Both the position numbers and the translations under genes were made by a program. Shown here piece after piece: positions 4,145-48,415 of a DNA stretch of 61,930 bases; the first letter of the stretch is position 1; every line of letters begins with the position of its first letter. The DNA is from a virus. The stretch lies in the IMG/VR virus record IMGVR_UViG_3300013099_000022, one strand, 5' to 3'. The notes under the pieces are model-generated. The model searched no databases. It had not been told where the DNA came from and was given only the letters and a program-made list of their open reading frames with translations.

Positions 4145-4413
4145 ATTTTAACGTCTCCATTTAATTCTTTTTTGAAATCTTCATAACCAGAAACGACTCT
4201 TCTATAAAATTCTAATTTGGAACATTCTAATGCACCAATACAATCATTAATAGTTTGATATGACTTATCATGTTTCTTTAAATAATGCTTTATTAAAACA
4301 GTAAAACAATAATTTAATTCACCTGGATGATCTAACATTTGACCAATTTCATATAAATACCCATTAAATTCTTCTCTATCTTCTTGTTTAATATAAGGCA
4401 TATCATTCCTCAC
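4141..4413 (-). CDS. Hypothetical protein (90 aa)
   Basis: ORF track; overlaps neighbours by a few nt. Confidence 0.4.
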   Translation of the reverse strand: MRNDMPYIKQEDREEFNGYLYEIGQMLDHPGELNYCFTVLIKHYLKKHDKSYQTINDCIGALECSKLEFYRRVVSGYEDFKKELNGDVKI

Positions 4414-4714
4414 AATCTATAGATTTAATATCACCCCATGTATCAATTTCTCCAATATGATATACTTTTCCATTTATATGAATTATTTTTTTACCATCCA
4501 AACATTCAATATCACTTAATACTGATTTTGTTGTAATAATTTCATCCGTGTTTGATTCTTGTTTGAATTCTTTAATCAAACTTCCAGTTTTTTGAGCAAC
4601 TTTTTCACTTTCCATAAAATCAAAAAATGCTGGAACAGCAACAGATCCTAAAAAACCTATAATTGATATAGTTATCAGCGCTTCAATTAATGTAAATCCT
4701 TTCTGTTTGTTCAT
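4403..4714 (-). CDS. Type IV prepilin-like (pseudopilin-like) protein; start re-assigned to the internal Met (MNKQKG-FTLIE...)
   Basis: Canonical class III signal: short basic leader MNKQKG followed by FTLIEALITISIIGFLGSVAVP (Gly-1, Phe+1, Glu+5, about 20 hydrophobic residues); C-terminal domain paralogous to 4725-5051. Confidence 0.5.
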   Translation of the reverse strand: MNKQKGFTLIEALITISIIGFLGSVAVPAFFDFMESEKVAQKTGSLIKEFKQESNTDEIITTKSVLSDIECLDGKKIIHINGKVYHIGEIDTWGDIKSIDCEE

Positions 4715-18032: not shown

Positions 18033-18788
18033 TTATCTTGTTGCTCTCCAATCCTTACTTCTTACACTTGCTTTATCTGCCGCAGCAAATTTAGCTTTAT
18101 TACTTTTTAATTTTTTAGCAACTGCTGCTTTTTTAGATAATTCTTTACCTCTTTTGTATTCATTCCATTTTCTTTGTCCAGCATATTGTACTTGTTTTAA
18201 TGAATGTTTTAATCCTCTTTTACCTGGTTTAGCAGCCATAGCAGCTTTTTCTTGACTTCTACGTTTTTGAGTTGTAGTCTGACCTTTTGTTGGAGATGCT
18301 TTAGTTTTTTTAGTGCCAGATATAGCAGCTTTTTCTTGACTTCTACGTCTTGCAGTAACTGCATCAGTTTTCTTTAAAGCTTTTTTCTTTACCATTTTAT
18401 CATATGCAGCAGTACTTGCTTTATCAGCAGCAGCAAATTTAGCTTTATTTTTTTGCATTTTTTTAGATTGTCTTTTTGCTTGGAAATCTTTAAGAGCTGT
18501 TGATGCACTATCTGTATAACCTTTAACTTTAGTTTTAGCTTGTTGTCCATAATCTGTAGCTTTAGCTTTAGCTTGTTGTCCATAATCTTTAGCTTTACCA
18601 ACAGCTGCTTTAGCTTGTTTTGGATTAGCAGCAGCATAACCACCTGCAGCAGCTAATGCAGCACCAGTAAGTATTTTACCTTTATGGTCTCTCCAAACTT
18701 TTTTAACTTTATCCCATATTTTACCTTCTTCTAGTCCATGTAAATAATTTTCTAATAAACTCATAATATACTCCTTCTTGATTAACAT
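18033..18788 (-). CDS. Lys/Ala-rich basic repeat protein (histone H1-like composition) with conserved N-terminal domain shared with 46350-46760
   Basis: N-terminus YLHGLEEGKIWDKVKKVWRDHKGKI is nearly identical to that of ORF 46350-46760; internal direct repeats (NKAKFAAADKAS x2, RRSQEKAA x2, DYGQQAK x2) visible in both protein and DNA. Confidence 0.55.
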   Translation of the reverse strand: MLIKKEYIMSLLENYLHGLEEGKIWDKVKKVWRDHKGKILTGAALAAAGGYAAANPKQAKAAVGKAKDYGQQAKAKATDYGQQAKTKVKGYTDSASTALKDFQAKRQSKKMQKNKAKFAAADKASTAAYDKMVKKKALKKTDAVTARRRSQEKAAISGTKKTKASPTKGQTTTQKRRSQEKAAMAAKPGKRGLKHSLKQVQYAGQRKWNEYKRGKELSKKAAVAKKLKSNKAKFAAADKASVRSKDWRATR

Positions 18789-19183: not shown

Positions 19184-22100
19184 TTATCTCCATATCATCA
19201 TACTAATAAAATAACTATTTAATAAATCTCTAACAGGTGATGATTTTGCTGTACGATATTTAGCATGACCTGTTTGTATAATATCTGATAAAATTTCATT
19301 CTTTGTTATATGATCATCAGATAACGGTCCAAAAAATTCAGCAAGTAGATTTGGACAATTATAACTAATAAAAGAATATGTATCCAATTCACCCATTCTT
19401 TGACCACCTTCTCTTTTTTTACCAGCGGTTGGTTGAAAGGTTTTACTTACAACTGGACCAGTACTTCTAGCAGCTAATTTATCTTTAGCTATATGTTCCA
19501 ATTTTAACATATACATATATCCAACAGGAACTTTACTTTTTGTTTTTGTATTATATTCTGGTAATTTTAAATTATAACCAGCTTTAAGACCTAAGCTTTT
19601 TAAAGCAGCTAATATTTCTTTATAAGCTGGAGCTTTAAATGGAGGTATTAATATAGTCATAGATCCAGAATCTTTAACTTGTTTCATAAACTCTTTAAAT
19701 TTAGTATCTGACATAGCTCTAAAACTATTAATCAACTTTTTACTAAATTCTTTATTTTTTGTCATATCAAGATTAGGAAGAACTTTATTTAATAATGCTA
19801 TAACTTTTGTTTTATTATTTAATTTAAGTATTTGTCTTCCAAGTTCTTTAGATATAAGTCCAGTATACATTTCATATAATTGACCAACATTCATACGACC
19901 AACTACTCCAATAGGATTTAAAATAATATCAACTCTATCTCCAGTAGTAGTTCTTGGCATATTTTCTTCTTTTTCAATAAGAGAAACAATACCTTTAGCG
20001 CCATGTCTATTAGTTAATTTATCACCAATACCAACAGGAAGTTCTTGTTCTAGTTTAAATTTAATTAAAACACCTTGAATGACTTCTCCTTTATATATAA
20101 ACTTTTCTTTAGGTTTTAAACCATATCTAGATCTCGTTCTTTTAGTTAAAGCATCTAATTCTGGAAATTTTCCTTCTTTTAAATTATTAAATACTTCTAT
20201 ATCAACAATTTTACCACCAGGAGATTTTTTAATCATATGACCAGAAACAACTTCAACCCCTTCCTCTTCCTCATCAAAACCAATTAATTCTTCAATCTCT
20301 CCAATACTCTTTCTTAATAATGGTTCTCCTTTTATAGTCTCAGCTCCTAATTTATTTATAAATACAACTCTGTCATCTTTTGCTATTTCAACTTCTTCAA
20401 CTATACCATGTAATGAATTTAGAATTCCTTCTTTTACTATTCTTTCAGATATAACAATTCCATCCTCAAAGTTAAAACCTTTATAAGGCATTAAAGCAAC
20501 ACACATACTTCTTCCAAGAGCAATAGATCCACCAGTAATACATGATCCTTCAGCTATTATACTTTTATATTTAACAACTTGACCAACCTTTACAGTAGGT
20601 TTAAATACACTTAATGTATCCTTACCAGATCCTGATCTTAAATGAACTGGTGTTATTGATATAACTTTATTACCACCAGTACTACATTTAATAGAAATAT
20701 CATCTTTTGTTACCCTAGTAATCTTTCCATTACAAGGAGATTTTTTGATAAAATCATCAGACAAGACACTTGTTAAAATTGATTCATATCCTGATTGAAT
20801 CATTGGTATTTCTGGGTTTCTTAATGGTACAGCTTGTCTCATTTGACTACATCCAAACATAACCCTATTACCATCGTTATTTTCAACAAATGGTATTTGA
20901 GCAGCTGTTGTAGATAAAAGTCCAGAATTTTCACCTTCTTTTTTATCTTTAGTTTGAATAATACCTCTCGCTGATGTTATGAAAGCATCAACAGTTAATT
21001 GCTGTACAATACCAACATTTTCACCTTCAGGTGTATCAAGTGTATCAATATTTCCAAACATAGAATCATGAACATTACGACCTTCATTTTGTATAGCTTG
21101 TTTATCAGGTATACCTCCAATTGCTTTACCAACAGGAGAAACTCTTGTTTTAGTAGCCATTTCTTCTATTGGATTAGCATACTCCATATCAGCTACAATT
21201 TCTGAATTTATAAAATCGCTTAATACTTTAGTTTGAGATATAGAAAATATAGCTTTTTTATTGCCAGATAATACTTGTTCTTTATATTCTGTGTGAGCTG
21301 CTAAAATTTGCTTTTGTGCTAGATGAACAAGAATCTCTGAATTTCTTATTCTTTGATTTGATATATCATTTCTTTTTTGTACAAATCCTTCAACTGCTTT
21401 AGATGACATATATTTCATAATCAAATGTAATTCAGATGGTAATTGTTTATTTATTAAAACTTGTTTAGCTACAGGATCCACAATATTCTCTAAATTTGAT
21501 TGTATTAAAAATGTTGAATTAATACGACCCGCTATTTTAATAATCAAATCATTAAAATATTGTTTAGTTAAAAACTCTGCTTTTAAATTATATGAACTAA
21601 TGTTGGAATGAACTAATGATTGAATTAATTCTTCTTTTAATTTTGTATTGATATTTTCAAATAAAATCCATTGGTTATCGTCAACTTTAACGGTCCATTT
21701 AACCTCTTTATCAGGTTTCTCGTTTGTTATCTTATACCTAATATCATATAATTTCAGTGTCTCTTTAAAACCAAAACTAAAGGATAATAGAACCAATAAA
21801 GGAACTTTATATGATCCAATGTATGCTTCTAAATATTCTTCTCTTTTTGTTCTTTTACTCCAAATATGGAATGTAGAATAACTACTTTCAAACTTACTAT
21901 CATATTTTTTAGGGAATGTTATTGGACATAAAACTAATTGATTAATAAGACATTTTTTCTTACCATTAATTTGAAATGTTCCATCATCTGCTATATTAGG
22001 AACATCTAATAAAATTTCATGTTCTCTTTTAAATTTATCAACCATGGTAATTTTTATAGTACTAATATTTGATGGAGATAAATCCCCTCTTCTTATAGGT

Positions 22101-23275
22101 TTTTTAACAATATTAATAGTTTTAAACTTTAACGGAATATTTTTTGTTTCTAAAACCTTAAAAGAATTCACAACATCTTTCTTTAAATTAGTTTCAAAGT
22201 CTATTTTTCTTTTTTCAAAAATATGTTCAGGTGATTTATTACCAACTGCATTAGAAACATTTGATAATTGTATAACTAAATCTTCTGCTGTGGTTTCTGT
22301 TTTTTTAGGTTGTAATAATTCATCAGCATATTTTTTATCAATAACTTTTAGAGCAGCAGTTTTTTTATTTTCTGGAATTTTTGAAGTCGTTTTACGAGAT
22401 TTTCCCATATCGCCAGTTGTTCTATATAATACAGATGCTGTTGCAATATCTTTAGCGTCATTATTAGTTATATCATTATTATGAGCTTTTTCTAAAGTAT
22501 TTGGATTTTTCTCAAAAAACTTTTGTATTGATTGTTTAAATTTATTTTTGTTAGAAGGTGTTATATCATCTTTAATTTTTTTAATTACTGTATTGGTCGC
22601 AGTATTTATTTTATTTTCAAGTTCTTCATCATCATCAATAATTTTAATATTTTTAAGAAATAAATTTATTCTATTGAATTTAATAGATCTATCTTTCATT
22701 AATAGTCGATATCTAGATGAATTATCCCCAATGGTATTTAGTATCAAATGATCATAGTATAATTTATTTTTCTTTAATTCTATAACAAATGGAAATATTT
22801 TTCTATCAATATATTTATTCATACCTTTAGTTGCATTGGTACTATACATAAAAATCTTTTGATAATTATTAGGAAATGAACTAAATATTTTATCAATTAT
22901 ATTTTTTAATATAAAACCACCACGAGCTCTATAATTTTTTAATTTATATGCATTATCTAATATATTTAAAAAAGGTGTTAAGTCATACATAAGATTTTGT
23001 TTTTGAGGTATTGATTGTGTAGAACTAGAAGCTACCAAACCATACGCCTTATATGTTTTTTTAAGTTCTGGTGACATAAAGCTATATGGAATTTTTGTTT
23101 TAGGAACGATAACTTTTTTAACATCCACTCTTTTTAAATTTAATTTAGAATAATCATCAACTAATGTTGAATTTTCACTAAAGTAAAGTATAATGAAAGG
23201 ATTCTTGGAATCTTGTGGAAATCGTATCCCATTAACAACATGTGTAAATGGTTTAAGCGCTTTAAATTGAATCAT
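19184..23275 (-). CDS. Multisubunit RNA polymerase beta subunit homolog (full length, 1363 aa)
   Basis: C-terminal conserved beta motifs: ILNPIGVVGRMNVGQLYE (cf. NPLGVPSRMNIGQ) and GGQRMGELDTYSF (cf. GGQRFGEME); length matches bacterial beta. Confidence 0.8.
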   Translation of the reverse strand: MIQFKALKPFTHVVNGIRFPQDSKNPFIILYFSENSTLVDDYSKLNLKRVDVKKVIVPKTKIPYSFMSPELKKTYKAYGLVASSSTQSIPQKQNLMYDLTPFLNILDNAYKLKNYRARGGFILKNIIDKIFSSFPNNYQKIFMYSTNATKGMNKYIDRKIFPFVIELKKNKLYYDHLILNTIGDNSSRYRLLMKDRSIKFNRINLFLKNIKIIDDDEELENKINTATNTVIKKIKDDITPSNKNKFKQSIQKFFEKNPNTLEKAHNNDITNNDAKDIATASVLYRTTGDMGKSRKTTSKIPENKKTAALKVIDKKYADELLQPKKTETTAEDLVIQLSNVSNAVGNKSPEHIFEKRKIDFETNLKKDVVNSFKVLETKNIPLKFKTINIVKKPIRRGDLSPSNISTIKITMVDKFKREHEILLDVPNIADDGTFQINGKKKCLINQLVLCPITFPKKYDSKFESSYSTFHIWSKRTKREEYLEAYIGSYKVPLLVLLSFSFGFKETLKLYDIRYKITNEKPDKEVKWTVKVDDNQWILFENINTKLKEELIQSLVHSNISSYNLKAEFLTKQYFNDLIIKIAGRINSTFLIQSNLENIVDPVAKQVLINKQLPSELHLIMKYMSSKAVEGFVQKRNDISNQRIRNSEILVHLAQKQILAAHTEYKEQVLSGNKKAIFSISQTKVLSDFINSEIVADMEYANPIEEMATKTRVSPVGKAIGGIPDKQAIQNEGRNVHDSMFGNIDTLDTPEGENVGIVQQLTVDAFITSARGIIQTKDKKEGENSGLLSTTAAQIPFVENNDGNRVMFGCSQMRQAVPLRNPEIPMIQSGYESILTSVLSDDFIKKSPCNGKITRVTKDDISIKCSTGGNKVISITPVHLRSGSGKDTLSVFKPTVKVGQVVKYKSIIAEGSCITGGSIALGRSMCVALMPYKGFNFEDGIVISERIVKEGILNSLHGIVEEVEIAKDDRVVFINKLGAETIKGEPLLRKSIGEIEELIGFDEEEEGVEVVSGHMIKKSPGGKIVDIEVFNNLKEGKFPELDALTKRTRSRYGLKPKEKFIYKGEVIQGVLIKFKLEQELPVGIGDKLTNRHGAKGIVSLIEKEENMPRTTTGDRVDIILNPIGVVGRMNVGQLYEMYTGLISKELGRQILKLNNKTKVIALLNKVLPNLDMTKNKEFSKKLINSFRAMSDTKFKEFMKQVKDSGSMTILIPPFKAPAYKEILAALKSLGLKAGYNLKLPEYNTKTKSKVPVGYMYMLKLEHIAKDKLAARSTGPVVSKTFQPTAGKKREGGQRMGELDTYSFISYNCPNLLAEFFGPLSDDHITKNEILSDIIQTGHAKYRTAKSSPVRDLLNSYFISMMIWR

Positions 23276-39585: not shown

Positions 39586-39646
39586 ATTGTACTCCTTTTT
39601 TTACTTTAATCTTTTATATATGTTCTAAATAAAATAATAATACCCT

Positions 39647-40393
39647 TTAAACACAATTCATTCTTTCCTCCATTTTTTTTATTTGAGAATAAACATCAAT
39701 ACCAAAACCTATATGTTTAGTTTCATATAATTTAATAAGTACTTTTCTTTGGAGGAATCTATTTTGCTCTAATGATTCAATATCTGTTGTACCCCACCAT
39801 AAATTTTCACCGTGTTCTTCAAATACATTTCTAGGAAATATAAAAATTCCTAAATGTTTTTTATAATCATCTAAAGGTAAATAAGATCCATTCTTTAGAA
39901 TAGGAACTACTGCTCTTGAATTATAAACCATATAATTTTCATTTGACGTAACTATTTTACAAGACAATGGACTTGTTAAATCCTCCATACAAAAAAATTT
40001 TGTATAGAAAGTTACAATTTCATTATTAAATAATTCATCTATATTTGAGAATGTTTTATTTATCTCTTCTGGGTTTATTAATGGTTCATCACATGGTATA
40101 GAAACATAATACTTATATTTATATTTATTTATTGATTTAAAATATTGATATGTCCTATGAGTCCCACAACATGCATCGCTTATAAAATAACCTTTAACCT
40201 GGTCAAATTCATCTGTTATTTTTATACCAAAATCTTCATCGTCTGTTGCTATAATTATATCATCAATAAAATTTAACTTAGATGTGTTATTAATAACATG
40301 TTCTATTATTCTCTTTCCATTAAGTTTGTGGATAATTTTATTTGGGAATCTAGTTGACTTTAATCTTGCAGAAATAACTGCTACAGTTCTCAT
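39647..40393 (-). CDS. CMP-sugar cytidylyltransferase (KdsB/NeuA/PseF family; likely CMP-Kdo-type synthetase)
   Basis: N-terminal AVISARLKSTRFPNK matches the family signature (IPAR..S.RLP.K). Confidence 0.65.
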   Translation of the reverse strand: MRTVAVISARLKSTRFPNKIIHKLNGKRIIEHVINNTSKLNFIDDIIIATDDEDFGIKITDEFDQVKGYFISDACCGTHRTYQYFKSINKYKYKYYVSIPCDEPLINPEEINKTFSNIDELFNNEIVTFYTKFFCMEDLTSPLSCKIVTSNENYMVYNSRAVVPILKNGSYLPLDDYKKHLGIFIFPRNVFEEHGENLWWGTTDIESLEQNRFLQRKVLIKLYETKHIGFGIDVYSQIKKMEERMNCV

Positions 40394-40989
40394 TATTTTA
40401 TTCCATAAAAATCATTAAAATCATTAATTGCATCTTGATTAAAAAACAACCCTTCCATATATTTTGGAGGAACAGTAGCATAATCAGCACCAAATTCTAC
40501 AGCATCTCTAATATCAACTATAGATCTAAAACTTGCTGCTATAATTTTAGTATTATATTTTCTTTCTTCTTTTAGATTTACACATTCTATAAGAAAATCT
40601 TTATTTTTATTTTTAGCACATAAAACAATACTATAGTCACTATCAACTTCACAAGCATAATCAAATTGGAAGAGATCATAAGTAATAGTTGCACAAGTTT
40701 TATAACCCATATTTTTTATTTTTTTAATTAAATCAAATCCATTAAAATCTTTTGTTATTAACAATGGAACTTTGAATATAATTTTATCGCTTGTGTTATA
40801 GTGATATAATTCTTTTAAAGATCTAACTTGAATAAATATTTTATTAAAATTATGTTTATTTTTAATAAAAAATTCATCTGCATTAGTTTTAGATTTATTT
40901 AATAATGATGGGTTGCTAGTTGCTCCATCAACAAAATTTTTCCATTTTTCAATTTCATCCTGATCAGCTGTGTCAATAAAATAATTCAT
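40393..40989 (-). CDS. Transaldolase / fructose-6-phosphate aldolase (TalC/Fsa)-like protein
   Basis: N-terminal MNYFIDTADQDEIEKW...GATSNPSLL matches the Fsa/TalC start (FLDTA..EI......G.TTNPSL). Confidence 0.5.
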   Translation of the reverse strand: MNYFIDTADQDEIEKWKNFVDGATSNPSLLNKSKTNADEFFIKNKHNFNKIFIQVRSLKELYHYNTSDKIIFKVPLLITKDFNGFDLIKKIKNMGYKTCATITYDLFQFDYACEVDSDYSIVLCAKNKNKDFLIECVNLKEERKYNTKIIAASFRSIVDIRDAVEFGADYATVPPKYMEGLFFNQDAINDFNDFYGIK

Positions 40990-41690
40990 TAAGTATTCCT
41001 TTTTAATATTAAATTTATATCTATAGTATCTAAATCATACTCTAAATATTTTATTAAGTCTTTTAATTTATCATCAATTTGTTCTAATTCATCATTAATT
41101 GTTTCTAAATTAATTTTTTTTAATAAAAATTCATCAAATTTTGTAATTGGTTTAATTTGTTTTAAATCAGTTCGTTTAATTAATTGGTTCATTAATTTAT
41201 TTTTACCAATCTCTTCAATTTTAATAACATTACTTTTTTCTTTAAATACCCCAATTAATATTTTTTTATACATTTTAATAAATTCATCTATTGAAAAATG
41301 TGTGGTGTTTACCATCCAGCAAATTTTAGGATGTCTAATAATAAAAATATTATAAAATATATTAGGTGGTAACTTATTATTTAAAACCCAGTCAAACCCA
41401 CCTGGTTTTACAACAAAATTATAATTAGGAAATTCTTTTAATAACAAATTAAACAAATTTAAAAAATAATTACCTTTAAATATCTCTAATGATTCAATAT
41501 CAGGTGTTATTTTATTTAACCATTTTTTACCAATTTGATATTCTATTTCGTCCTTATTATCTTTTAAATGATCTGGGGATATATCTATCCATTTATAATT
41601 ATTTTCTTTTTTAAATAAATTATAAACTATTGTTTTACCAGAATTAAAACTACCATGTAAAATAACAACTTTTTGATTAGATTTTTTCAT
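40989..41690 (-). CDS. P-loop kinase-like protein
   Basis: Walker A ILHGSFNSGKT near N-terminus; 233 aa; no further family assignment possible. Confidence 0.4.
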   Translation of the reverse strand: MKKSNQKVVILHGSFNSGKTIVYNLFKKENNYKWIDISPDHLKDNKDEIEYQIGKKWLNKITPDIESLEIFKGNYFLNLFNLLLKEFPNYNFVVKPGGFDWVLNNKLPPNIFYNIFIIRHPKICWMVNTTHFSIDEFIKMYKKILIGVFKEKSNVIKIEEIGKNKLMNQLIKRTDLKQIKPITKFDEFLLKKINLETINDELEQIDDKLKDLIKYLEYDLDTIDINLILKRNT

Positions 41691-42588
41691 AATTAGTAGA
41701 AGTCCTATTTATTCTTTCCTTACTTTTAAATTTATTGTTATAAATAACAATATCATTTTGATCTTTTCTTTGATCGCAATTTTTACATATATAATTAGTT
41801 TGATTTAATGTATTATTCTCATGATGTTTTTTTAAATCTAAAAAAGGTTTATCATTAAATATATCTTCCATAGTATGATTTAAAAAATTCCCTAATAACA
41901 ATTTTCCATTATAATCAAAACAACACATATTAACTGTGCCATCAACTTGTATTTGATATGGACTATTCCAAGGTCTTCCGCAAGTTGATTTTACTATATC
42001 ACCTTTTCTAAATTTAAAAGCATCTACCCAATTATGAGGTTTCCACATTTCAATTGTTGCATAATCATCATATTTTTCTTTAATTAAATCAATTTGGTCA
42101 TCATTAATTCCAGGTATAATATCAAATGTTAATATTAAATTTATATTTGTTTCATTGATAATATAATCAATATTCCATAACACTTGTCTAAATTGGTATA
42201 AAGGAGCTTTAGTTATTATATGATATGGTTTATATAAAACTGAATGTAAACTAATTCTTATATCTTCAACACCCACCTCATTTAAAAAATCTACTCTTGG
42301 GTAAGGTAAATAATAACCATTAGATAATATATGAATTTTAAATCCACATTCTTTTGCATATTTTATTTTTTCTAATATTTGCCAGTCTACAAATGCTTCA
42401 CCAAAACCAGAAATTGTAATATTGGTTATGTTAGGTAATTCCTTTTTAATTTTATCAACAATCAAACAAAATCTTTCTAACGACATTTCTTCTTTTTTAC
42501 GAACAAATTTTGTGGAATGAGGACAAAATATACAAAAATAATTACATATTGTACATGTTTCTATTCTTACTTCATTTGTATTTAGCAT
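41677..42588 (-). CDS. Radical SAM enzyme with C-terminal SPASM/twitch-like Cys cluster
   Basis: CTICNYFCIFC (CxxxCxxC cluster) near N-terminus; additional Cys pairs (CGRPW...MCCF..., CKNCDQ) in C-terminal third. Confidence 0.7.
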   Translation of the reverse strand: MLNTNEVRIETCTICNYFCIFCPHSTKFVRKKEEMSLERFCLIVDKIKKELPNITNITISGFGEAFVDWQILEKIKYAKECGFKIHILSNGYYLPYPRVDFLNEVGVEDIRISLHSVLYKPYHIITKAPLYQFRQVLWNIDYIINETNINLILTFDIIPGINDDQIDLIKEKYDDYATIEMWKPHNWVDAFKFRKGDIVKSTCGRPWNSPYQIQVDGTVNMCCFDYNGKLLLGNFLNHTMEDIFNDKPFLDLKKHHENNTLNQTNYICKNCDQRKDQNDIVIYNNKFKSKERINRTSTNYEKI

Positions 42589-43957
42589 TTTGTACTTTCA
42601 ATAAAAATCTATTTTGATAATCTGTAATTGTTAATATTTCAATATTATATTTTTTAGGGAATAATTTTTTTATTTTTTCTTTTGATTCAGAAATTGACAT
42701 TCCTTCATGGTTTGTTGGTTCTAAAAATAAATTATATTTTGTTATACTTAAAAGAAAATCTAATAAAAGTACTGTTTCATTAAAATCTCCAATAGATAAC
42801 ATTGATACATTATCAAACTTTATATTATTTTTTCTACACTCTATAATAAATTTTTTTATATCTTGTTTAATAAAGTTTATATTTAAATTCTCAATTTTAT
42901 TTATTAACTTACATAATTTTATTATATCATCTTCTATATCAACACCTGTTGCTTTTATATTTTTTAATTCTATTAATTCTTTAATAATAAAACCGGAATT
43001 ACAACCCATATCTAAATATGAACTATTTGGTTTTATATTATTTGCAATTGCATTTATTCTTATATGTTGATTTTCCATCTTTCTTCTATTACCATCTATC
43101 AATAATTCTCCATTTATAGTAATAGGATTATATACATCCCACTCATCTAGAGATTTTATAAATTTTTTTATTTCATAAATATTGCTTGTATAAGTTCTAT
43201 TTATATAATTATATAAATTTATAAAACCTTTAATATATTTTAATAAATCTTTAACAGGTATTTGAGAATCTGCATCACAACTAGCATTCATAGGATCAAT
43301 TGTTGATTCAATAAACAAACCATTCGCTCCTGATGCAATTGATGACATTCCTAAATCAAAAGCATAACTTCTATTATATATTTTTGAATGATTTTGTGGG
43401 TGGGTAATATCAACTAATACAGCATCACAATTACTTGTTTCATTCATATGTCTAATATGTCGAGGATCCATTACAACATTATCATATCCAAATGTAGTTC
43501 CTCTATCTGTTATAAAAACCTTAGTATCTTTATTTAAATTTTTAATTTTTGATACAGGTTTTTTAACATCACCAGAAGATAACCATTGTGGTTTTTTAAT
43601 ATGAATAGGTTTTCCAGTTTTAGATGCAGCTTTTGCAAGAGAAGTTTGCATTGCTAAAAATGCTGGAATTTGAATCAAATCTACATATTTTGCATATGTT
43701 TCTATTTGTTCAACTGTATGAAAATCAGTAGTTATTTTACAATGAAATTCCTCTTTGATTTTAATTAAACTTTTTATTCCTGATTTAAAACCTGGACCAG
43801 AATAGTTTTGAATTCGTGTTCTATTATCTTTAATACAAGAAGATTTAAAATAAAAATCAATGTTGTTATACTTATTAACAATTGCTACTATTTCTTTTGC
43901 ATCTTTTCGTAATTTTGATAAATTTTCAATAACACAAGGTCCGCATATTAAAATCAT
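42572..43957 (-). CDS. kdsA: 3-deoxy-8-phosphooctulonate (Kdo-8-P) synthase fused to a class I SAM-dependent methyltransferase domain
   Basis: N-terminal 250 aa: ICGPCVIE, YSGPG...IKEEFHCKITTDFH, QIPAFLAMQTSL, IKKPQWLS, DRGTTFGYDNVVMD, DITH closely follow KdsA; C-terminal domain has MTase motif I YLDMGCNSGF. Confidence 0.7.
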   Translation of the reverse strand: MILICGPCVIENLSKLRKDAKEIVAIVNKYNNIDFYFKSSCIKDNRTRIQNYSGPGFKSGIKSLIKIKEEFHCKITTDFHTVEQIETYAKYVDLIQIPAFLAMQTSLAKAASKTGKPIHIKKPQWLSSGDVKKPVSKIKNLNKDTKVFITDRGTTFGYDNVVMDPRHIRHMNETSNCDAVLVDITHPQNHSKIYNRSYAFDLGMSSIASGANGLFIESTIDPMNASCDADSQIPVKDLLKYIKGFINLYNYINRTYTSNIYEIKKFIKSLDEWDVYNPITINGELLIDGNRRKMENQHIRINAIANNIKPNSSYLDMGCNSGFIIKELIELKNIKATGVDIEDDIIKLCKLINKIENLNINFIKQDIKKFIIECRKNNIKFDNVSMLSIGDFNETVLLLDFLLSITKYNLFLEPTNHEGMSISESKEKIKKLFPKKYNIEILTITDYQNRFLLKVQNAKYK

Positions 43958-46349: not shown

Positions 46350-46760
46350 TTAAAAATCCTCGTTGTCTTTTATATTTTGTTTAGATTTAGGTGTTTTACC
46401 AAGAAACCTATCTTTCATCTTGTTAGCAGCTAATTTACCAGCTTCACCACATCCCACTAATTTACCCATACTAAAATAAGCTTTTTGGCCTGGACATTTA
46501 CTTTTTGCTATAGCGCCTTTTTGCCTTAGTTTGTTTTTTTGTCTTGCTATAAGCTGAGATCTTCTAGATGGCTTTTGTTGTCTAGAACTTGTGTTCGATA
46601 CATTTTTATTACCCTTACTTCTATTAGCATAGGCTATACCGCCTGCAGCTACCGCCGCACCTGCAATTATTTTTCCTTTATGGTCTCTCCAAACTTTTTT
46701 AACCTTATCCCAAATCTTACCTTCTTGCAAACCATATAGGTAATTATCTAATATAATCAT
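46350..46760 (-). CDS. Basic Lys/Arg-rich protein, paralog of 18033-18788 (shared N-terminal domain)
   Basis: YLYGLQEGKIWDKVKKVWRDHKGKIIAGAAVAAGG versus YLHGLEEGKIWDKVKKVWRDHKGKILTGAALAAAGG. Confidence 0.5.
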   Translation of the reverse strand: MIILDNYLYGLQEGKIWDKVKKVWRDHKGKIIAGAAVAAGGIAYANRSKGNKNVSNTSSRQQKPSRRSQLIARQKNKLRQKGAIAKSKCPGQKAYFSMGKLVGCGEAGKLAANKMKDRFLGKTPKSKQNIKDNEDF

Positions 46761-47312: not shown

Positions 47313-47585
47313 TTATACTGTAAGTATTATTTTATTTTCAATGATTTGAATTAATACATCTCCGTGACATGGTTTTGGTTTGCAATAACATCCAAGGGTT
47401 TTATTTTTTAATTCAGAGATGCAACTTAATAATTTTTTATTATTTAATATATAATCTTTATATTTATTTATTACTTCAGTTCTATTTCCATCTTTTCCTA
47501 TTATAAAAGGATTTCCCCATTTAGAACCTCTACCAATATAAATATCATAATCATGTTTCTCACAATGGACTACTTTTATAGCCAC
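47313..47585 (-). CDS. DUF4326-family protein
   Basis: YIGRGSKWGNPF ... LGCYCKPKPCHGDVL signature. Confidence 0.5.
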   Translation of the reverse strand: MAIKVVHCEKHDYDIYIGRGSKWGNPFIIGKDGNRTEVINKYKDYILNNKKLLSCISELKNKTLGCYCKPKPCHGDVLIQIIENKIILTV

Positions 47586-47836
47586 TGATCATCTCTTGCA
47601 ATTGATGCATTAGCCCACATAATAGCTTCTTCAATTTTAGTAATAGCAATAGATTTCTCTCTACTATCTGGGCATACAGCATTTATATACTCTACTAAAT
47701 CTTTTCCATTATTTCTTAATTGTCCATATATTCCAACTTGTTTTGGTGTTGGTGCATGATATTTAAAGTTATTCTCAATCTCTGTTTGTTTCACTTGATT
47801 CTCCTTGTTCATAAAAATGTGGATTATTCTTTTCAT
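47576..47836 (-). CDS. Hypothetical protein (86 aa)
   Basis: ORF track; overlaps upstream gene, so start uncertain. Confidence 0.3.
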   Translation of the reverse strand: MKRIIHIFMNKENQVKQTEIENNFKYHAPTPKQVGIYGQLRNNGKDLVEYINAVCPDSREKSIAITKIEEAIMWANASIARDDQWL

Positions 47837-48101
47837 CGCACTCTTTCATTGACCAATATGATCTATCACAACCACCACATATTGGAGTTAAAACACCATG
47901 TTGCACAGCTCCACAATGAGGACAAGCTATTTCTCCAACTGGAACTTTATATTTTAAAGCTGGTTCTCTTGGCCAATCTTGATTCAAGAGTGCTATAGTA
48001 TGTTTTTTTACGCACTCTTCTGAGCAGAATGTTTGGAACATAGTTCCTTTATCATTTTCCCATTTATAATATTCTTTTTGACAGTGTAAGCATATAGCCA
48101 T
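47775..48101 (-). CDS. Zinc-finger-rich hypothetical protein (108 aa)
   Basis: CLHCQ, CPHCG, CGGCD pairs. Confidence 0.4.
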   Translation of the reverse strand: MAICLHCQKEYYKWENDKGTMFQTFCSEECVKKHTIALLNQDWPREPALKYKVPVGEIACPHCGAVQHGVLTPICGGCDRSYWSMKECDEKNNPHFYEQGESSETNRD

Positions 48102-48415
48102 TATAATTCCTTTTTAACTTCTTCTTCGCCTTTGTCTTCATGCGGTTCATGTTCAATATCTAATTTTTCTAATAAATATTCAAACTCGCCAATATGTTCT
48201 TTTTCTTCATTTGCTACATTTAATAATACTTGTTTAACATCTTTATCAACTGCTGCTTCAGACATCTGTTCATATAAATTTATTGCATCATATTCAGCAA
48301 TAATAGCAGCTCTTAAAATTTCCATATCTTTTCTTTTACTAGAAACTTTAGTGTCTTTATTAGGAATGATTGACATTAACTCTGTTAAATATTTATTTAT
48401 ATAATTTTTATCCAT
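48101..48415 (-). CDS. Possible ferritin-like/rubrerythrin-like small protein
   Basis: E..AI.AEYDAINLYEQ....LLNVANEEKEHIGEF resembles ExxH diiron helix pairs; weak. Confidence 0.3.
   Translation of the reverse strand: MDKNYINKYLTELMSIIPNKDTKVSSKRKDMEILRAAIIAEYDAINLYEQMSEAAVDKDVKQVLLNVANEEKEHIGEFEYLLEKLDIEHEPHEDKGEEEVKKEL

Follow-up and report, generated by a model that had tools for sequence, protein, structure and literature searches.

A shared N-terminal module in two basic proteins of an uncultured giant phage may include a cleavable capsid-targeting leader

What can be the common task of two proteins that begin almost identically and then have nothing further in common? This question is raised by gene A and gene B of the IMG/VR virus record IMGVR_UViG_3300013099_000022, of which the whole stretch analysed (61.9 kb, 27% GC, hereafter the window) was searched and compared with metagenomic relatives. 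Both genes encode small basic proteins with a shared N-terminal module. The reading we favour, at a probability of roughly one half, is that A and B are head or prohead-core proteins similar to the internal proteins of T4, carrying a cleavable capsid-targeting leader that would be cut after Glu13 by an S77 protease.

The two N-termini are identical at 25 of 30 residues in the core (BLASTP E-value 7e-18), and 36 of about 52 N-terminal columns are invariant between them, with similarity absent past about residue 47; an earlier note on this DNA, which had described two genes with a near-identical N-terminal module, is borne out in this respect. The DNA copies differ chiefly at synonymous sites (AAA/AAG, ATA/ATT, GGT/GGA), and over eleven homologous loci the codons of the core also vary synonymously (AGA/CGT for Arg, AAA/AAG, ATA/ATT/ATC), indicating that the constraint acts on the protein. 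An assembly error or recent local duplication, which the note had named as a possible refutation, was rejected on account of these synonymous differences and of recurrence in independent assemblies, gene A being seen on three independent contigs and the exact gene B protein on seven (NCBI, Logan, ENA, JGI). A and B carried the only copies that a hidden Markov model (HMM) of the module recognized in the window, and the additional flanks of about 17.5 kb on the NCBI record contained no other. The open reading frame (ORF) given earlier for gene A, 18033-18788, stands as the longest reading, but translation almost certainly begins 24 nt further downstream, at the ATG at 18764. This start is supported because AAGGAG lies upstream of it, because it aligns with Met1 of gene B and of all family members, and because the resulting 243-amino acid (aa) form is the one on record in the public collection, where its 90% protein cluster has one member.

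The module was then sought in related phages, as had been proposed. An exhaustive HMMER search over 1.84 billion representative proteins (E-value ≤ 1e-3) returned 39 proteins, two of which, long and repetitive, were judged to be low-complexity matches. Word-indexed homologue searches with short alignments of the module largely failed, probably swamped by low-complexity words, while a full-length gene B query worked. Scans of A, B and their relatives against Pfam, PHROGs and NCBIfam gave nothing above threshold, a sequence search of the PDB with the family gave no match, and no fold match was found in the PDB or BFVD. Repeated matches of the module to AbiV/HEPN (E-values 0.005-0.15) were judged spurious, being below the cut-off and without the Rx4-6H motif. 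A degenerate DNA pattern scan of GTDB representative genomes yielded mostly chance matches and no true family member after HMM filtering. The family loci from a metagenome pattern scan have 25-30% GC, except for one 1.5-kb fragment at 35%, and two further loci fetched later have 31-32%; all family contigs are from uncultured phages. The module defines a new orphan family that is without annotation anywhere.

The conserved region had been taken for a single 40-residue domain. Its conservation was confirmed, but it consists of two separable parts: a leader of 11-19 aa with the consensus M-x-x-[LIV]-D-x-Y-L-x-x-[LIV]-x-E-G, and a second part in which a Lys/Trp amphipathic helix, GK[IV]WDKVKKVWRDHKGK, continues as an uncharged helix rich in Ala and Gly. 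In a family logo of 35 members, the positions on either side of the putative cut, P1 and P1', are Glu and Gly respectively in 34 members each, while P3 is Leu or Ile in 26 and one of Leu, Ile, Val or Phe in 33. The site at the end of the gene B leader is the sole [LI]-x-E in the whole gene B protein.

The genomic position of other leader-bearing proteins points to the phage head. Three full-module members of what is here called the C-type (P0032, P0011 and P0025; tail motif GKTAEIVTRPVRW) are encoded directly after a 'head maturation protease' gene of the Peptidase_S77 (T4 gp21) type, and downstream of them lie two conserved small helical proteins and then a Gp23-type major head protein. At one such locus (L078) the order is protease, P0007, P0025. 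When the Gp23-type capsid protein was used as query, 29 giant-phage loci were recovered; what follows the protease differs between them, and in about half of them this slot is empty. Where it is filled, it often encodes a small protein that starts like the leader and has a hydrophobic Ala/Gly segment and a basic tail, often with Cys. Nearly all of the 29 loci continue with conserved helical proteins of 98-104 aa and 137 aa. Locus searches with the RuvC-like protein, the ribonucleotide reductase (RNR) or the C-type alignment as queries found nothing.

The closest relative of the window phage, IMGVR_UViG_3300035390_000014 (a 202-kb contig), carries both a gene A orthologue and a head module, and its RNA polymerase beta is about 85% identical to that of the window as judged from reading the two translations. 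Its gene after the protease encodes a 137-aa protein in which MSKLIDIYLESLNEG is followed immediately by a C-type tail, so that only the leader is present and the second part of the module is absent. A 185-aa protein adjoining the 212-aa gene A orthologue starts with MIDTQSYLQESYLQEDLNLIQE↓GFGDF (the arrow marking the putative cut here and below) and has C-terminal transmembrane segments. The likeness among these three leader proteins, all from one genome, ends at E↓G. The Met-anchored leader pattern had no further match in about 215 kb of six-frame ORFs.

Two side observations concern the same loci. P0007 (L078 278-1231, 317 aa) contains two complete modules, the second of which (about 205-260) has a leader without Met. 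The protein, seen on one 2.2-kb contig only, looks like an in-frame fusion of two tandem paralogues, and if the leader is cut by the protease, it would amount to a small polyprotein. In the closest relative (L096 6359-7996) a 545-aa ORF with a TTG start is inserted between a 249-aa head-module protein and the prohead protease, and several other loci have a head module split by homing-endonuclease-like genes.

The internal-head reading is favoured because leader-bearing relatives lie between the prohead protease and the major capsid gene, because the conserved [L/I]-x-E↓G at the end of the leader agrees with the gp21 motif, and because three otherwise different proteins of one genome match only up to E↓G; the fast-evolving tails and the variable post-protease slot are also counted for it. 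According to this model the leader, i.e., the first 13 residues (M..L[D/E]NYL..L.E), would bind the assembling scaffold core and act as a capsid-targeting signal. A gp21-type (Peptidase_S77) prohead protease would then cut behind the invariant Glu and free a mature protein beginning with GKIWDKVKKVWRDHKGK and continuing into the Ala/Gly helix, and the polycationic tail would sit among the packaged DNA, probably to be ejected together with it. We infer targeting, cleavage, packaging, DNA contact and ejection for A and B from these comparisons, and we likewise infer that the window phage itself carries a protease and capsid module, such a module having been seen only in its closest relative. Among the options offered in the earlier note, that of an internal head protein with a packaging signal is thus the one favoured by the protease-to-capsid context, the putative cleavage motif and the leader-only likeness; a packaging signal by itself leaves the role of the Ala/Gly helix unexplained.

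The comparison with T4 is instructive on both sides. T4 gp21 cleaves after L/I-X-E, and the T4 internal proteins bear N-terminal capsid targeting sequences (CTS) of 10-19 aa that bind the core and are later removed (PMC9026906). In the T4 record IPII and IPIII share MKTYQEFIAE↓A and gp22 starts with MLKEQLIAE↓A, the internal proteins are basic (pI 8.9-9.5) and encoded outside the head module beside denV, e and an RNA ligase gene, the gene order is 21 (protease), 22 (scaffold), 23 (capsid), and gp68 has a strongly basic tail. As with IPI, IPII and IPIII, small basic and otherwise unrelated proteins of one phage here have in common a short N-terminal leader of comparable length (11-19 aa) with [L/I]-x-E at its end. 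In the phage clade of the family, a gp21-type (S77) protease gene precedes the gene for a gp23-type capsid protein, as in the T4 order 21-22-23, mature parts are poorly conserved among related phages, and genes are scattered amid repair and nucleotide-metabolism genes, as is gene B between a RuvC-like and a LigD-N gene. The differences are that there is no homology (IPIII and gp68 were compared by hhalign, gp67 and gp22 by eye only), that the residue behind the cut is Gly in the family and Ala in T4, that conservation extends for about 32 residues beyond the putative cut, across an Ala/Gly-rich hydrophobic helix lacking in T4 internal proteins, that the tails are far more basic (net +22 to +47), and that some paralogues are encoded inside the head module.

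Paralogous head-internal proteins (inner-body and ejection proteins) that are cut C-terminal to Glu by a gp21-like protease are also known from phiKZ, 201phi2-1 and SPN3US, where the motif is S/A-X-E (PMC9026906). These are likewise giant phages with their own multisubunit RNA polymerase, and the motif recognized there is again a minimal one with Glu before the cut. The motif of the present family is L/I-x-E, however, no homology was found by tblastn against GenBank phages, and the RNA polymerase beta of the window phage is only about 22-32% identical to that of any cultured phage.

Several points weigh against the internal-head reading. All relatives are uncultured and the reading rests on sequence comparison, with L/I-x-E being a short motif. 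A and B are located outside the head module, A after RNA polymerase beta and a DUF6957 gene and B amid repair and nucleotide-metabolism genes, and the prohead protease and capsid genes of this genome were not seen in the window or its flanks of about 17.5 kb, the module lying outside. No sequence or profile similarity to T4 IPIII and gp68 was detected for the family (hhalign probability ≤ 0.1%). The most conserved stretch lies behind the putative cut, which would not be expected of a simple cleavable targeting peptide, and a basic stretch followed by an uncharged Ala/Gly-rich helix resembles a membrane segment of the signal-anchor or signal-anchor-release (SAR) type. The distant members P0033-P0038 retain just FWQKHKGKI-AGAALA... 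and are without leader and E-G. The conserved post-cut segment, with its amphipathic and Ala/Gly helices, may let the proteins oligomerise in the core or insert into a membrane once ejected.

The position beside the protease would also be compatible with scaffold-type assembly proteins that are active only in prohead assembly and, instead of staying in the head or being ejected, are then degraded and expelled, as are T4 gp22, gp67 and gp68. The long predicted helices of gene A are scaffold-like, and T4 gp68 has a comparable basic tail. The conserved helical proteins of 98-104 aa and 137 aa are, however, better scaffold candidates, and the leader-protein slot, so often empty, is evidently dispensable. 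Furthermore, the A and B tails have no further L/I-x-E sites and thus would not be fragmented, and hypervariable tails are ill-fitting for a scaffold that determines size; of all the explanations considered in this study, this one appears the least probable. A weak match (E-value 1e-3) on a contig of 46% GC (L086 413-1165; IMGVR_UViG_3300043429_001023) contains ...IIEEGKVWDKVKRGAKTAAVVGGVGLGLAGAAKV... followed by an acidic coiled-coil-like tail, and could be a distant relative with a scaffold-like tail.

Behind the module the proteins diverge into A-type, B-type and C-type tails and short forms. A-type tails are Lys/Ala-rich with very long predicted helices lacking an amphipathic face, while B-type tails have a confidently predicted helix-hairpin-helix with two conserved Cys. 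The tails are basic but unrelated even among syntenic gene A orthologues (best pair E-value 0.002; best for the window's own tail 0.045), in contrast to the next gene beside these orthologues, which is 65-73% identical. The tail of gene A comprises 197 aa and is polycationic, Lys/Ala-rich and helical by prediction. The AlphaFold2 (AF2) model of the protein has helices at 3-46, 48-149, 166-176 and 183-242, with a predicted local distance difference test score (pLDDT) of up to 95 and a predicted template modelling score (pTM) of 0.30, and its composition (pI 10.5, net charge +47, 21% Lys, 19% Ala) is extreme. The internal repeats previously noticed in this gene were confirmed at the DNA level (53 nt twice, 40 nt twice and a 33-nt tandem). 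No significant amphipathic or coiled-coil periodicity was found in the gene A tail, and an apolipoprotein/LEA-like lipid-binding helix or a classic coiled coil was rejected on this ground. The tail of gene B (whole protein pI 10.4, net charge +22) had been described as K/A/R-rich like that of gene A; it is more than a plain Lys/Ala tail, a helix-hairpin-helix mini-domain being confidently predicted there. Its Cys89 and Cys104 are conserved among the B-type relatives (alignment with P0002 and P0003), and its fold has no match in the PDB or BFVD.

Such tails invite comparison with linker histone H1 and Chlamydia Hc1, and the proteins might be soluble cytoplasmic nucleic-acid binders that condense or cover DNA, or RNA, of host or phage, the module being an oligomerisation handle and not a targeting signal. 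The likeness lies in extreme basicity, richness in Lys and Ala, low complexity and internal repeats. The placement of gene A in the RNA polymerase operon and of gene B amid recombination and repair genes would agree with this, charge-driven binding would suit the long predicted helices, which lack an amphipathic face, and small-residue helices could form bundles. The composition had indeed been called histone-H1-like, and this description stands, but membership of that family does not. There is no match to linker histones, HU, Hc1 or other DNA-binding families (Pfam and NCBIfam, E-values up to 1) or to PDB sequences, only two Pro occur in 195 residues of the gene A tail, which is predicted to be made of long helices and not to be Pro-rich and disordered, no S/TPKK-type motif is present, and A and B have an N-terminal hydrophobic module and no globular winged-helix domain. 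The tails are unconserved even among orthologues, the conserved Cys pairs of the B-type would be unusual in a cytoplasmic coat protein, and the conserved E↓G boundary and the head-module paralogues would remain unexplained. Accordingly, a role of this kind is considered improbable.

The Ala/Gly-rich helix bears on a further explanation, in which the proteins are membrane-associated, are made and act within the infected cell, and are not packaged. Here the amphipathic and Ala/Gly helices would form a signal-anchor or SAR-like segment that holds the polycationic tail at the inner membrane or exports it, with tethering of phage DNA (as in phi29 p16.7), control of lysis or attack on the envelope as possible uses. 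The uncharged run is weakly hydrophobic, 10-20 residues long across the family (median 15), has positive flanks on both sides, and the stretch ahead of it always carries a net charge of +2 to +6. In P0023, P0026 and P0003 it is frankly hydrophobic, and its sequence varies while its character is kept. As Ala and Gly need GC-rich codons, which are costly at 27% GC, this character is selected for itself. An exported domain would agree with the even Cys numbers and Pro-rich linkers seen in B-type tails and in distant members, and weak matches to DMAC1/Dmo2 and to a segment of a pore-forming toxin were obtained. A separate 79-aa protein (L045 35-274) has an Ala/Gly-rich hydrophobic start, a Lys-rich tail, no leader and a weak holin match (phrog_20, E-value 1e-4); an Ala/Gly anchor with a basic tail therefore recurs in the clade outside the family.

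Precedents for such a membrane segment do exist. SAR domains consist of basic residues followed by a weakly hydrophobic Gly/Ala-rich segment that is often missed by hydropathy programs (PMC9239132), a composition similar to that of the present module. In SAR endolysins and pinholins, however, the domain of about 20 residues is at the extreme N-terminus after 2-3 basic residues and is attached to an enzyme or holin domain, whereas here the run is about 15 residues long and begins only at residue 31, both of its flanks are positive and there is no lysis-gene context. SAR domains and signal peptides are not headed by thirty conserved residues as this segment is. In the small p16.7 protein of phi29, encoded among replication genes, a hydrophobic segment lies at the N-terminus and the C-terminal part binds nucleic acid. 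It is a membrane protein that binds phage DNA (PMC4974454), and the likeness is that of a small phage protein with a hydrophobic N-terminal segment; there is no homology, p16.7 has a true transmembrane helix and a folded DNA-binding domain, and it lacks a leader, a protease-site motif and head-module paralogues.

Other findings speak against membrane insertion. The orientation of transmembrane segments follows the positive-inside rule, with which either orientation would conflict here, both flanks being positive and the tail having a net charge of up to +45. The run is short and weak (median Hessa17 +3.5, compared with about -3 to +2 for known transmembrane or signal segments), and the true transmembrane segments of the window phage are rich in Ile, Val, Leu and Phe, unlike this Ala/Gly-rich helix. 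No match of A or B was found to holins (PHROG, Pfam), to spanins or to YtxH/ElaB (DUF883; Pfam, E-values up to 1), and both genes are far from the SLT gene and very hydrophobic small ORFs at 60.1-61.5 kb. Moreover, the protease-adjacent paralogues and the leader on proteins without a hydrophobic part would be left unexplained. On balance a membrane role is unlikely, although it is the alternative to which we give most weight. If A and B were membrane proteins after all, they would still be a new clade-specific set of polycationic membrane-tethered proteins.

The internal-head reading can be extended in a way that accommodates both halves of the module, though we regard the extension as rather doubtful. 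The module might be a two-step address label, of which the cleavable leader loads the prohead while the helices exposed by cleavage insert in the inner membrane of the new host after ejection. The hypervariable polycationic or small folded payload would then be held at the entry site, for example to receive or protect the incoming genome or to block host defences. Were this so, a whole clade of uncultured giant phages would possess a portable tag for loading and delivery that lends itself to engineering, and the variable tails would be an arms-race effector repertoire.

The features of the two genes are collected in Table 1. Gene A lies downstream of RNA polymerase beta and the DUF6957 gene in all syntenic orthologues. 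It was rejected as an embedded spanin or lipoprotein locus, the overlapping ORFs being low-complexity alternative frames, and AAATWATGTTAA was dismissed as a shared upstream motif for want of enrichment (14 found against 12 expected).

Table 1. Positions of genes A and B, their module parts and the internal repeats of gene A in the window.
Feature	Position	Strand	Basis
Gene A, 243 aa (P0008)	18033..18764	-	ORF; second ATG as start
Shine-Dalgarno AAGGAG of gene A	18771..18776	-	Sequence; 6 nt upstream of ATG 18764
Gene A leader, residues 1-13 (MSLLENYLHGLEE), candidate capsid-targeting propeptide ending L-E-E↓G	18726..18764	-	Family logo; leader on protease-adjacent proteins
Gene A residues 14-30 (GKIWDKVKKVWRDHKGK), Lys/Trp amphipathic helix with the strongest conservation in the family	18675..18725	-	Conservation; peak of hydrophobic moment
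Gene A residues 31-46 (ILTGAALAAAGGYAAA), uncharged weakly hydrophobic Ala/Gly-rich helix	18627..18674	-	KD17 1.16, Hessa17 +4.6
Tandem repeat of 33 nt, 2.5 copies, DYGQQAK(A/T)K units	18516..18597	-	Tandem Repeats Finder (TRF) score 136, 89% matches; families D3/D5
Dispersed direct repeat D2, copy 1 of 2 (NKAKFAAADKAS)	18414..18466	-	53 nt, 87% identical, 348-nt spacing
Dispersed direct repeat D2, copy 2 of 2 (NKAKFAAADKAS)	18066..18118	-	53 nt, 87% identical
Direct repeat D4, copy 1 of 2 (RRSQEKAA)	18317..18356	-	40 nt, 88% identical, 84-nt spacing
Direct repeat D4, copy 2 of 2 (RRSQEKAA)	18233..18272	-	40 nt, 88% identical
Gene B, 136 aa (P0001), module and basic tail with small folded domain	46350..46760	-	ORF; predicted fold
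Gene B leader, residues 1-13 (MIILDNYLYGLQE), candidate capsid-targeting propeptide ending L-Q-E↓G	46722..46760	-	Family logo
Gene B residues 14-45, amphipathic helix (GKIWDKVKKVWRDHKGK) then Ala/Gly-rich helix (IIAGAAVAAGGIAYA)	46626..46721	-	Alignment, hydropathy
Gene B residues 62-125, predicted mini-domain of helix (66-88), beta-hairpin (94-104) and helix (105-120)	46386..46577	-	AF2 pLDDT 88-96

The window is a nucleic-acid-metabolism region of a giant phage, and all its real genes are on the minus strand. It encodes an unsplit 1363-aa RNA polymerase beta-like protein and a piece of beta', topoisomerase II subunits, helicases, RecA, RNR, a RuvC-like resolvase and a LigD-type phosphoesterase. 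The beta-like subunit (19184-23275, minus strand) is a single chain with a GDK..NRHG.KG motif. Its identity to counterparts in cultured giant phages, bacteria and GenBank phages is at most about 22-32%, so that there is no close cultured phage, while it is 85-91% conserved inside the uncultured clade as judged from reading the translations. No match for the locus, gene A or the consensus module was found by blastn and tblastn against GenBank phages.

The window is 99.2-99.9% identical, indels aside, to the NCBI assembly contig JAPOGZ010000001.1 (246,859 bp). The largest difference is a segment of 4.36 kb at 39601-43955 with five ORFs (248, 198, 233, 303 and 461 aa) and a GC content of 22-23%, which is missing from that contig; there the 67-aa and 142-aa genes directly follow RNR, indicating a strain-level indel between RNR and RecA. 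A second, smaller difference was noted near 58.3-58.9 kb.

Several other minus-strand genes of the window deserve mention in their own right. An 849-aa protein (12174-14723) has a full-length match to Pfam MVP_shoulder (E-value 5e-19, residues 527-649) and a Vault_3 repeat just below threshold (E-value 2e-6), and is thus major-vault-protein-like; the literature was searched for jumbo-phage vault proteins without a relevant result. Precomputed matches assign a 72-aa protein (47576-47794) to the Acb2/Tad1-hairpin family of anti-CBASS/Thoeris sponges and a 104-aa protein (48101-48415) to EncFtn-like/rubrerythrin, i.e., encapsulated-ferritin-like, proteins. A 103-aa protein (about 4400-4712; L076 6694-7005) has a precomputed match to N_methyl, the prepilin-type N-terminal cleavage/methylation domain, and is pilin-like; near its gene are a PTPS-like gene and a pair encoding DUF2201 (VWA-like) and an AAA ATPase. 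In the stretch 60115-61524 an SLT (lytic transglycosylase) domain protein has a strongly hydrophobic N-terminal segment (60301-60945) and is flanked by four very hydrophobic ORFs of 42-71 aa, the cluster being probably a lysis cassette or a virion muralytic module.

While the family itself is new, the principle it follows is most likely one already known from T4. If A and B are head-internal proteins, the T4 principle of a capsid targeting sequence combined with variable internal proteins would extend to a deep clade of uncultured, AT-rich giant phages with their own RNA polymerase, and it would do so through a non-homologous leader for which the exact cleavage residue is predicted. Such leaders would be handles to find injected proteins, often anti-defence factors, in metagenomic phage genomes, or to load foreign proteins into capsids. 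The strongly conserved Lys/Trp and Ala/Gly segment, for which there is no T4 counterpart, may be the sign of a new step, in which the proteins either oligomerise within the core or enter a membrane once ejected.

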